IMG/VR virus record: IMGVR_UViG_3300029288_000065
Location: 96,001 to 160,000 of that record
Direction: 5' to 3' (one strand)
From: a virus
Lineage: Duplodnaviria > Caudoviricetes
DNA: 64,000 bases
The translations under genes and the position numbers were made by a program. The notes under the pieces are model-generated. The model saw only the letters and a list, made by a program, of their open reading frames with translations, ran no database searches and was not told the DNA's origin. Below are positions 2,703 through 28,938 of the stretch, one piece after another. How positions within the stretch are numbered: position 1 is the stretch's first letter; each line of letters begins with the position of its first letter.

Positions 2703-3752
2703 ATGGAACCAAATGAGATTGCCAATTACCTTGGTGATGATGACCATGTTGAGAATGTAATTCAGGAAGTCGTTGATATTCCAGATGACAAGCTTTTGAC
2801 AGAAGCTGGTTTGCTTGGCAGAATTTTTACTTCAGTACTTCGCGAAGTATTCCCAAACTTGGGGATAGATATTACAGATCCGACTATAAAGAGAGCATTG
2901 GCTGTTCATCCTGATATTGGAAATATTGCAAAATTTGCTCAACAATATCAAGCTTCATTGGTTGGTTTAATGCAAGCTACCAGGTCCTATATAAAGGACA
3001 AAGCTGTTACTGAGAAGGTCCACGATGTATTGAGGAATGCTGTTAAGGTTGGTGTTCCAATTATTAAGGAAGCGGCTGCGGCTGCTGCTGAGAAGTTTGC
3101 TCAGGAAATGCGTCATAAGGGTGAGGGAGATCTTGAACGAAAGACTGATAAAGTTGAAGGTGATATTTCCAAGACGGTGGAACCTCCAAAACCTGCACAA
3201 CCAAAACCACAAGATCTAACTGGTAGAGGTGACGAGTTAAGAGGTACACCAGGATTACAGATGGCTTCCTTTAACCGTATAGGTTACAAAACTATTCTGG
3301 AAGCCGAACAGCCAGTACCATCCTCAGGACCAGTCAACACGCCAAAAGCAATAGACAAACCACGTGCTGGTCCAGTCTTGAAGAGTAAAGAACTTCTTGC
3401 TGGAATCCCAAGTAACCAAAAGCCTTTGAATAAACCAATTTCAAAACCAGCAGCAATGCCCCCGAGAGTGGAGTGTGTTATTGATTTAAAGCAATTAACG
3501 GAGATGATTCAGGCGGCTGGGGCGTCGACGGGTACTGATGAGGGAATAAAGCCTCTGGATATTCCCCCGAGTAAGAAGAAATTCACTACGATCCTTTTTA
3601 AGGATAATGGTCGTCCGAAATATAAGGTTGCTGTGAAGAATGATGGTCAGAATATTCATGAACTTGAGAATATTGCAAAACGAATAATTAATGGAAATCC
3701 CCCTGAAGGATGGGTTAGTGGAGAAGATTACGCAATAATTAGACTTGGCTAG
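2703..3752 (+). CDS. hypothetical protein, possibly virion-internal (L/I-x-E motifs, Pro/Lys-rich linker)
   Basis: 349-aa ORF; LLTEAG, ILEAE. Confidence 0.55.
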   Translation: MEPNEIANYLGDDDHVENVIQEVVDIPDDKLLTEAGLLGRIFTSVLREVFPNLGIDITDPTIKRALAVHPDIGNIAKFAQQYQASLVGLMQATRSYIKDKAVTEKVHDVLRNAVKVGVPIIKEAAAAAAEKFAQEMRHKGEGDLERKTDKVEGDISKTVEPPKPAQPKPQDLTGRGDELRGTPGLQMASFNRIGYKTILEAEQPVPSSGPVNTPKAIDKPRAGPVLKSKELLAGIPSNQKPLNKPISKPAAMPPRVECVIDLKQLTEMIQAAGASTGTDEGIKPLDIPPSKKKFTTILFKDNGRPKYKVAVKNDGQNIHELENIAKRIINGNPPEGWVSGEDYAIIRLG

Positions 3753-26636: not shown

Positions 26637-26808
26637 TGGTGCTCCTGGAAGGGTTCGAACCTCCAACCTTCCAATGGGATGAAACCCACCATCTAGTGCT
26701 ACGGATCAGACCCATCACACGAGTCGTCCCTTTAGATGACAGGTCATCACCCACTGGTGCTCCACCGACCCCACTACTGCGATAGTGGAGATTTTGAGCT
26801 ACAGGAGC
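26637..26808 (-). ncRNA. 172-nt tRNA-like RNA with D-loop hairpin insertion and extended anticodon arm
   Basis: acceptor GCTCCTG/CAGGAGC + A-CCA, TAGCTC/GAGC D stem, GGAGG-TTCGAAC-CCTTC T arm, long internal helices. Confidence 0.8.
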
Positions 26809-26816
26809 AACTCTTT

Positions 26817-27242
26817 TTACTCATCATCGTATACAAGTCTCGGAGGCTTATTCTCCTTGAAATAAGCCCTAACATGTTCCTTTACAACTTCATTAAAACC
26901 ATACTTATTCATAATCTCCTCCAAATTCTCAGACGGCTCATCGCCACCCAAATATGCCTTTTCACCAACACAAATCAAAATATTATCAGCAAACACCTTA
27001 TGATTCCCTCTCACCACGTATGGGGTGGCGTAGAGAGGAGAATCATTACAACACCCACAAGAATGCCTCATTGAGACACCCTCAGCAATCGCGTAAACCT
27101 TCTTACTGGTGAAGTATTGCTTTCTCCACCTGTCAGTTTTTACCTCCATATCTGGAAATTCAATCATCAAGTTCTCGATCTCTGCTACTTCAAGTGCCTT
27201 GCTCTTCAGTTCTGCAAGGTGTTTGTCGATGGACTCTGACAT
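26817..27242 (-). CDS. hypothetical protein (HSCGCC motif)
   Basis: SD AAGGAG; 141 aa. Confidence 0.7.
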   Translation of the reverse strand: MSESIDKHLAELKSKALEVAEIENLMIEFPDMEVKTDRWRKQYFTSKKVYAIAEGVSMRHSCGCCNDSPLYATPYVVRGNHKVFADNILICVGEKAYLGGDEPSENLEEIMNKYGFNEVVKEHVRAYFKENKPPRLVYDDE

Positions 27243-27252
27243 GTGTCTCTCC

Positions 27253-27558
27253 TTAGAGAAGCTTTAGTTCTCGGAACCAACCACTATCAACTGACGGGGA
27301 AATTGCCAATGCTGTGTGTGCGTTAATGTCTGGTTCATGGAAAATTGCGTGCTTAATTTCCTTGAACTTTTTCTCCCACGAGAGTAAGTCTTCCTCATCC
27401 TTGACGCCCAGGAGGACCATCGTCTTGTGGTTATTGTTCCAATCCTGTACCTATGGATCAGTTAGGTACCTGGAGAGGAACTCCGCTACAGCATGGCAAG
27501 CCTGTACTGCACGCTGAGAGGGCGAAAGATCCTTACGCACTAGCACATACAACTTCAT
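27253..27558 (-). CDS. pth2: peptidyl-tRNA hydrolase 2-like protein with in-frame amber at codon 36
   Basis: MKLYVLVRKDLSPSQRAVQACHAVAEF..P*VQDW..KTMVLLGVKDEEDL..FHEPD..TALAISP..LKLL; SD AGGAG; absent from the ORF track. Confidence 0.85.
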
Positions 27559-27919
27559 CTCGGAGTCTCCTTTCTTCCTGTATTTCCTTGCCCAGTTCCA
27601 ACCACTTTCTCTCGTATTTCTCGTCTCTGAGTTTCTCCATCAGACCAAATAAACTTCTGTTTGCGTAGGCTATGAGGTATGGGTATTTGTCTGAAATGTG
27701 ACAGGCTCGTTTGTCGTTCTCATTGCGATGGATGTGTAGTGCAATTAACCATTTGGAAGCTTCACGTTTATATCCTACGTAGGTTTTCCAGTTTTTTGAT
27801 TTTGGGTTGATGTGTTCGCCGATTTTGGTTCTAGAGTCTTGTTTTAAATCGGTGATTGCTTTGGCGTTTTTCCGGATGTAGTGCTTAATTACTTCTTCGA
27901 CCGTCAAATTCGTCGTCAT
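27533..27919 (-). CDS. basic hypothetical protein, first gene after the leader hairpin
   Basis: SD AAGGAG 7 nt before ATG 27919. Confidence 0.7.
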   Translation of the reverse strand: MTTNLTVEEVIKHYIRKNAKAITDLKQDSRTKIGEHINPKSKNWKTYVGYKREASKWLIALHIHRNENDKRACHISDKYPYLIAYANRSLFGLMEKLRDEKYERKWLELGKEIQEERRLRDEVVCASA

Positions 27920-27926
27920 CTTAAGT

Positions 27927-27975
27927 CTCCTTAACGGGTTTTGACCGAGGGGGTTGGCCATTACCCGTTAAGGAG
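27927..27975 (-). promoter_or_regulatory. SD-sequestering hairpin (13-bp perfect stem)
   Basis: CTCCTTAACGGGT ... ACCCGTTAAGGAG; the 3' arm contains the AAGGAG SD of ATG 27919. Confidence 0.85.
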
Positions 27976-28006
27976 GGTGAAGATCGATGTTTGGTACCTA
28001 ACGCAT
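27968..28006 (-). promoter_or_regulatory. leader uORF M-R-(TAG)-V-P-N-I-D-L-H-P-P-TAA
   Basis: own SD AGGAG; amber at codon 3; last codons overlap the 5' arm of the hairpin. Confidence 0.75.
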
Positions 28007-28047
28007 AACTGTCTCCTAATCTATTTTTATCTACGATTGTCAGTTTG

Positions 28048-28443
28048 TCAATAATCAACGCCTCTCATTTTCAATGTACCAAAATATTTCTCCATCCTCA
28101 AAAATTTCTTCTTTCTATCACTACAAAGGAAGATTAGGCAATCTACAAAGTGTTTCCAGAACGTGTCAGGGTCGAAATTCGGGTCTGCTAGTTCTATTTC
28201 ATAGAACACATAGCTTGGGTAATTTACATTATATTCTTTACTATAAAATATTTTTATGTCGGTATCTGAGATTTCTATAGAAGTTGCTCCGAGGATTCCA
28301 GTATCATAGTCCAGGCAACGTGGTGATTCACTTTTTATTGCAACCCGTCTAAGATCTTGCCCTAAGATTGAATATATTTCTTTCCCTAAGCGCTGGATTG
28401 ATTTTTCTATGGTATGCATGATTTCCAAATGATCTTCGTTCAT
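28048..28443 (-). CDS. small protein, ELADP family
   Basis: IELADPNFDPD. Confidence 0.65.
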   Translation of the reverse strand: MNEDHLEIMHTIEKSIQRLGKEIYSILGQDLRRVAIKSESPRCLDYDTGILGATSIEISDTDIKIFYSKEYNVNYPSYVFYEIELADPNFDPDTFWKHFVDCLIFLCSDRKKKFLRMEKYFGTLKMRGVDY

Positions 28444-28862: not shown

Positions 28863-28938
28863 TGGCGCTTCCGGAGGGAATCGAACCCCCAACACACTGA
28901 TTTAGATTCAGCTGCTCTACCAATTGAGCTACGGAAGC
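28863..28938 (-). tRNA. amber suppressor tRNA (anticodon CUA)
   Basis: 76-nt cloverleaf GCTTCCG..TAGCTCAATTGGTAGAGC..GCTGA-ATCTAAA-TCAGT..GGGGGTTCGATTCCCTC..CGGAAGC-G-CCA. Confidence 0.92.

Follow-up and report, generated by a model that had tools for sequence, protein, structure and literature searches.

A probable readthrough-gated translational attenuator beside a phage amber suppressor tRNA

Some bacterial genes are controlled by the translation of a short leader. In cat/ermC, SecM-secA and MifM-yidC2, a ribosome stalled at a particular codon opens a stem in which the Shine-Dalgarno (SD) sequence of the gene downstream is buried. The gene for RF2, prfB, is autoregulated by frameshifting at an in-frame UGA. 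SD-hiding timing hairpins of the soc/e/49 type are known in phage T4. Termination is slow where Pro-Pro stands before a stop codon (Hayes, Janssen; reviewed in PMC3985003), and Asp-Pro is also listed as slow. A further group of arrest peptides, RAPP/RxPP, comprises ApdA, ApdP and CruR (PMC10951233). Many phage tRNAs with a CUA anticodon work with host synthetases, and the residue that they insert in E. coli extract is mostly Gln; 90 of 162 were strong suppressors in an extract that was optimised for UAG (PMC12636597). XacN1 (PMC5852040) and the Zeta crAss-like phages (PMC12386605) use the standard code and carry a suppressor tRNA for which no target was found; both papers raise the question of why such a tRNA is retained. 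The locus described here places such a tRNA beside a leader with an in-frame amber codon. No description of this module was found in the open literature, to which the search was confined.

The leader, the stem and their neighbours

The window is the whole 64,000-nucleotide stretch of DNA that was analysed. It is part of a 234-kb viral genome that is 89% complete, and the window elements described in this section lie on the minus strand. The leader ORF (27968-28006) has 13 codons, reads M-R-amber-VPNIDLHPP-TAA and ends CAC CCT CCT TAA, with Pro-Pro immediately before the stop codon. Its amber, TAG, is codon 3 (28000-27998). A spacer of 6 nucleotides separates the leader start from an AGGAG SD (28013-28017), which is the commonest SD of the genome and is invariant in near relatives. 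The Pro-Pro-stop codons overlap the 5' arm (27975-27963) of a stem. This arm, the anti-SD, is the exact reverse complement of the 3' arm (27939-27927) over 13 base pairs, and the 3' arm contains the AAGGAG SD of gene X', 7 nucleotides ahead of the X' ATG at 27919. All of these elements agree base for base with a preliminary description of the locus. It had placed the amber about 22 nucleotides upstream of the stem, and the gap counts to 22. It had also proposed folding as a check, and the 13-base-pair stem, with an inner 5-base-pair hairpin, is present in both the minimum free energy and the centroid folds (z −2.1 over 151 nucleotides). An in-frame ATG in the loop (27961) was rejected as the X' start since it is not open in the relative L010.

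The 234-kb genome contains a single leader composed of an SD, an ATG, an amber and a terminal Pro-Pro-stop, where shuffled genomes average 0.03, and the stem at 27975-27927 is the only perfect stem of at least 10 base pairs in the genome that buries an AGGAG start. The pattern of leader and stem is therefore not due to chance. It has the layout of a cat/erm-type attenuator: a short leader with its own SD precedes the regulated gene, and the end of the leader overlaps an SD-hiding stem whose structure is conserved.

A candidate sigma-70-type promoter (28023-28051), composed of TTGACA, a spacing of 16-17 nucleotides and a −10 box, lies just upstream of the leader. It has 10 of 12 matches and is weak alone, with seven such sites against 5.2 in shuffles. 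The TTGAC...GTAGATA pattern is kept in every near relative with upstream DNA. This conserved motif bears on another use of the stem, as a timing hairpin that silences X' on long early transcripts until transcription from a late promoter within the stem releases the SD, with the leader incidental. The T4 hairpins provide a precedent, and promoter types of the phage's own, beyond a sigma-70-type search, are possible; no sigma-70-type site was found inside the stem by a search limited to that type. Such a hairpin is very improbable here. It sits poorly with the motif upstream of the leader, and it leaves unexplained the in-frame ambers, the triplet indels, the conservation of Pro-Pro and the matching of stop codon to anticodon described below.

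Gene X' (27533-27919) encodes a basic, all-helical protein of 128 amino acids and holds the position of phage family X elsewhere. Its end is overlapped by the start of a PTH2-like gene (27253-27558; 101 codons; Pfam PF01981), of which codon 36 (27453-27451) is a TAG in frame, preceded by Asp-Pro. The next ORF on the strand (26817-27242; 141 amino acids) has its own SD and no amber and is kept in near relatives; it has no match in Pfam, PHROG or NCBIfam. A 172-nucleotide tRNA-shaped RNA (26637-26808; z −4.26) forms the end of the putative transcript. It has long inserts in the D loop and the anticodon arm, and its acceptor, T arm and CCA are intact. A rod of about 85 nucleotides replaces the anticodon loop and is conserved in L012 (1988-2155) and L016 (1378-1520), even where the tRNA scaffold differs. 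The insert has no match in Rfam or viral contigs. The RNA occupies the position that the CUA tRNA has in most related loci, and its acceptor resembles some of theirs.

The amber suppressor tRNA (28863-28938) has the anticodon CUA (28905-28903) and an encoded CCA, and was identified with ARAGORN and as an Rfam tRNA (67 bits). It lies 0.85 kb upstream of the leader and is conserved in L010, L013, L014 and L015. The cloverleaf of tRNA-Pyl lacks the D-loop GG and the T-loop consensus and has a 3-nucleotide variable loop. The window tRNA was rejected as a true tRNA-Pyl because its cloverleaf is canonical, with the GG, a TTCGA loop, a 5-nucleotide variable loop and a full-length match to RF00005.

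TAG terminates 54 of the 278 predicted genes and 26 of the 134 long genes. It is a normal stop under the standard code, so an amber-recoded phage (code 15) was rejected. A genome-wide scan, crude enough to miss the known PTH2-like case, found no further amber-split genes above the TAA/TGA background. Neither a release-factor gene nor a Glu/Gln synthetase (GlnRS) gene was found in the 89%-complete genome. Outside the window, a 765-codon frame on the plus strand (G000:C1:10096) does not end at its TAA: another 345 codons that look coding follow, lacking an early start, and a frameshift, readthrough or an assembly error may account for this. The main tRNA cluster of the genome contains an ARAGORN tRNA-Leu(UAA) with a 195-nucleotide intron (G000:C1:3555-3836).

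Conservation in near and distant relatives

The near-relative set has five distinct metagenomic members, in which X' is 50-81% identical. In all five, the SD, the start and the final His-Pro-Pro-TAA are kept, as is an in-frame TAG with a Val codon after it, and their leaders contain indels of triplets only. The amber of L016 is shifted to codon 7, and L020 has two ambers. CCT CCT, which is the anti-SD itself, is invariant in this subfamily. The stem shows three compensatory pairs and is 95.6% paired, above all slid controls, in seven sequences that are few and related. The amber of the PTH2-like gene never varies among relatives that are 55-92% identical, and the codons on either side of it have changed synonymously; this conservation led us to reject a sequencing error or a pseudogene. 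TAGGTAC was rejected as an exact shared readthrough motif, as relatives vary (TAG GTN, TAG ATN). GT or AT follows the amber in 47 of the 58 leader ambers.

More distant loci, 92 in all, were gathered by way of the PTH2-like protein, with exact duplicates removed and some near-copies remaining. A CUA tRNA lies within about 3 kb in 72 of them. The strict leader pattern (start, amber and a final Pro-Pro-stop) is present upstream in 30 of the 92 loci. Controls gave two matches downstream, none on the reverse strand, none with TGA and one with TAA as the inner stop. A relaxed search matched in 45 of 56 X loci, or 42 once mis-picks were removed; it selects for Pro-Pro, and the fair test of enrichment is the strict-pattern count only. 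About 11 of the 56 X loci have no Pro-Pro leader by the search pattern, several of which bear amber leaders with other ends. The amber leaders of L053, L086, L055, L065 and L039 end R-S-P in frame with X, or N-T-S-stop, and these ends are possibly further stall motifs. At L006 (3282-3701), a long amber-gated upstream ORF overlaps the X start and no short Pro-Pro leader is present, a coupling variant.

The 42 leaders form two almost exclusive classes, each with a known type of stall signal (PMC3985003, PMC10951233): those with Pro-Pro-stop (21) and those with Arg-x-Pro-Pro and a sense codon (14). A further 6 have both features, and a single leader has neither. Pro-Pro-stop is thus present in 27 leaders, Arg two residues before Pro-Pro in 20, and one or the other in 41. 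The last amber is always at least three codons from Pro-Pro, and Pro-Pro lies 46-104 nucleotides before the X start, which leaves room for a second ribosome. The first amber is found anywhere from codon 2 to codon 13 and leader lengths vary; the two-codon minigene and peptidyl-tRNA drop-off, which the preliminary description had offered as a rationale, were for this reason rejected as a general role.

Thirteen different pairs of Pro codons occur among the leaders, and CCT CCT is the commonest (17 of 42). Its rank, together with its invariance in the subfamily of the window leader, would suit a switch without a stall, in which Pro-Pro is there as the CCUCCU anti-SD and X' is turned on by simple translational coupling: any ribosome that has read through opens the stem as it moves along it, or starts again on X'. 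We consider this improbable, since 25 of the 42 leaders use other Pro codons, several carry a second Pro-Pro before an internal amber, and re-initiation is inapplicable to the 14 leaders in which Arg-x-Pro-Pro is followed by a sense codon.

The stop codon of the leader changes with the tRNA. L089 and Lak-B1 have a UUA tRNA, and their leader stop is UAA instead. Loci without a visible leader often have an amber at the start of the PTH2-like gene or inside it. Internal ambers are present in 26 of 94 rows of the PTH2-like alignment and at several positions, with at least seven changes forced by supported branches; judged from these sequences, ambers inside the gene arose repeatedly. In L101 (XacN1 ORF364) and L062, an HD-like domain is fused to the PTH2-like domain, and the protein starts M-K-amber or M-N-L-A-amber. 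In XacN1 the ORF364 region begins M-K-amber, in frame with the fusion, and the suppressor tRNAs of that phage probably act there.

Besides XacN1 with its start-proximal amber, two cultured phages have related arrangements. Stenotrophomonas phage DLP5 (L115:1367-1871) has a minimal module, an amber leader that ends Lys-Pro-Pro-stop, followed by X and a tRNA-Sup-CTA, and no PTH2-like gene is present in it. Mycobacteriophage Breeniome (L104:2096-2851) has two start-proximal ambers beside a CUA tRNA, one before gp158 and one in frame with the annotated peptidyl-tRNA hydrolase. The PTH2-like protein occurs in more than 200 mycobacteriophage records. L002 has an odd tRNA (3273-3349) between X and an amber-split PTH2-like gene, with an 8-nucleotide anticodon loop and '???' as its ARAGORN call. 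The PTH2-like genes of L043, L085 and L094 are apparently split by homing-endonuclease or intron-like inserts.

As far as sequence comparison goes, the leader design is conserved in dozens of phages. Several features are particular to the window locus: a leader of the His-Pro-Pro-stop subtype whose stem is strong and covaries, an X' that has diverged, a further amber preceded by Asp-Pro, the upstream tRNA and the downstream tRNA-shaped RNA.

Footprint folding and the proposed switch

The cost of opening the X' start was computed with an assumed ribosome footprint of 28 nucleotides. Free RNA requires 18.7 kcal/mol. A ribosome placed at the amber leaves the cost at 18.3, and one placed at Pro-Pro brings it to 6.7; the drop falls between codons 7 and 10. 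As in cat/erm-type attenuators, the SD is freed in silico from the stall site but not from upstream. At Pro-Pro the cost falls by more than 1 kcal in 38 of the 42 leaders and rises in no leader. The effect disappears when the sequence that is covered between the two positions, and no other, is shuffled (mean 7.5 versus 1.2 kcal; it exceeds the shuffled value in 41 of 42). The parts of the locus, their conservation and their geometry were established here, as were, within the folding model, the energetics. The polarity, ON with readthrough, follows from the footprint folding and agrees with the PTH2-like gene's own need for readthrough.

The locus is very probably a readthrough-gated translational attenuator that would be ON when the leader amber is read through, the reading that the preliminary description had put forward. 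It is now supported by the conservation of the leader, the covariation of the stem, the footprint folding with its shuffle control, the linked CUA tRNA, and the UAA leaders that accompany UUA tRNAs. Leader translation, the stall at Pro-Pro and tRNA activity are the parts that we infer. In the OFF state, host RF1 would terminate the leader at UAG and the ribosome would leave 22 nucleotides before the stem, which would keep the X' SD paired. The PTH2-like protein would not be made either, its gene being coupled to X' and itself split by a UAG. In the ON state, the UAG would be read by the CUA tRNA of the phage, which a host synthetase has probably mischarged, and the inserted residue would be unimportant. 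The ribosome would then reach His-Pro-Pro-UAA and pause in slow termination atop the 5' arm; that the window peptide stalls is assumed from the Pro-Pro-stop rule. The SD, 51 nucleotides downstream of the last Pro codon, would be free for a second ribosome. A second readthrough would be required for the full-length PTH2-like protein and would sharpen the response.

The position of the tRNA bears on whether the switch could be a positive feedback or timer. Accumulated tRNA would then turn on X' and the PTH2-like protein, which would further weaken RF1 or mature the tRNA and so lock the phage into a phase of suppression, as a forerunner of stop-codon recoding. The genes under control are directly followed by the tRNA in most loci, where untranslated mRNA could also cut tRNA transcription, and the module is present in the recoded Lak-B1. 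The window tRNA, however, is upstream of the leader and of the candidate promoter, the genome has no other convincing amber-split gene that would gain, and the Lak-B1 leader senses UAA rather than the codon that Lak-B1 has recoded. A feedback of this kind is unlikely.

The putatively gated proteins, their possible purpose and known systems

The canonical X family has 2,277 clusters at 50% identity and a confident four-helix model. X' shares the four-helix order of X in the models, as well as its position in the locus, and it lacks the canonical X motif R-H-x-H-I-A-Y. The match between them is weak, with 41% in hhalign over the N-terminal 30 columns and an HMM score of 3.7 bits. Fold searches with X and X' gave generic helical hairpins only, with no informative or shared match. 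X also occurs fused to the PTH2-like protein, in loci that share the leader logic and the tRNA, which points to a joint function. The PTH2-like protein scores 44.5 bits against PF01981 (gathering score 23 bits) and falls below the NCBIfam equivalog cut-offs (27.8 versus 126 and 26.4 versus 82 bits). In its alignment, the RxDL and QxxHA motifs are kept, the GK lysine is replaced by Gln, and DAGHT (DAGxT) by EPDxx. The Lys and DAGxT are the canonical catalytic residues of Pth2. Peptidyl-tRNA hydrolase activity, which the drop-off rationale would require, is doubtful given the loss of this Lys.

Granted the attenuator, we suggest tentatively, from the PTH2 fold, that the ends of tRNAs, or ribosomes that have stalled or are terminating, are the targets of X' and the PTH2-like protein, and that both are made in proportion to suppression. 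Their purpose may be to limit suppression or to clear its by-products.

The same switch could also be an alarm for release-factor failure, in which a weak sentinel tRNA wins only when a host defence or stress disables termination and X' and the PTH2-like protein form a phage rescue or release system. Double ambers would give it a steep threshold. Because 54 of 278 genes end normally in TAG, a tRNA that suppressed strongly at all times would come at a high cost. The acceptor stems and discriminators of 70 module CUA tRNAs share no common identity in a rough tally, the leader of Lak-B1, where TAG is apparently sense, uses UAA, and the 89%-complete genome yielded no RF or GlnRS gene. On the other hand, we know of no anti-phage system that targets RF1, and the PTH2-like protein lacks the catalytic Lys of Pth2. 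Weakness of the tRNA is also not obligatory, as many phage CUA tRNAs suppress strongly (90 of 162; PMC12636597). We regard the alarm as possible though doubtful. Feedback that limits suppression or clears its products is thus favoured over the alarm, and the alarm over positive feedback.

A broader and speculative reading, possible though doubtful, is that of a widespread phage circuit in which the suppressor tRNA is a probe of translation termination and not a recoder. It would gate a new two-part factor, the helical X together with a non-canonical PTH2-fold protein. Some component of the host's termination or tRNA machinery would be replaced, inhibited or repaired by this factor, perhaps to counter a host defence.

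If the attenuator is as proposed, long-unexplained phage suppressor tRNAs gain a concrete target, hidden from annotation in a 13-codon leader and a split gene. Stop-codon readthrough would join the inputs of bacterial leader attenuators. The locus also points to a large unnamed X family and a non-canonical PTH2 branch that may act on translation, and it may represent a stepping stone to phage code reassignment. For genetic-code engineering, the locus could serve as a compact amber-suppression sensor that already exists.

The proposed switch would join attenuation of the cat/erm or SecM type to a Pro-Pro-stop stall and would sense what prfB frameshifting senses; its combination with a phage suppressor tRNA had no precedent in the open literature searched. 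The locus resembles cat/ermC, SecM-secA and MifM-yidC2 in its short leader with its own SD and its stall-melted stem over a downstream SD. It differs in that the phage stall looks constitutive and the passage of a stop codon takes the place of a drug, a metabolite or a pulling force as the input. The leader ends in Pro-Pro-stop as in TnaC and other Pro-Pro-stop systems, and the PTH2-like amber follows Asp-Pro, but in the phage an amber gate precedes the putative stall. With Arg at the second residue ahead of Pro-Pro, 20 of the 42 leaders resemble the RAPP/RxPP peptides. The window leader ends L-H-P-P-stop, with Leu where those peptides have Arg (or His), and the known RAPP/RxPP peptides have no internal stop. 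A phage-encoded CUA tRNA is shared with code 15 phages, XacN1 and the Zeta crAss-like phages; unlike the code 15 phages, the present genome is not recoded, and where the papers on XacN1 and the Zeta crAss-like phages found no target, two conserved candidate targets adjoin the tRNA here. The PTH2-like protein matches the fold family of archaeal and eukaryotic Pth2 (PF01981; 2zv3) and keeps two of its motifs, but it departs from Pth2 at the Gln and EPDxx replacements and lies far under the equivalog cut-offs. In prfB, as here, an in-frame stop gauges the competition at termination and controls a translation-related product; the amber within the PTH2-like coding sequence comes near to the prfB arrangement. 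In the phage, readthrough would be by a dedicated tRNA and would be relayed through a leader and an RNA switch, with no in-gene frameshift.
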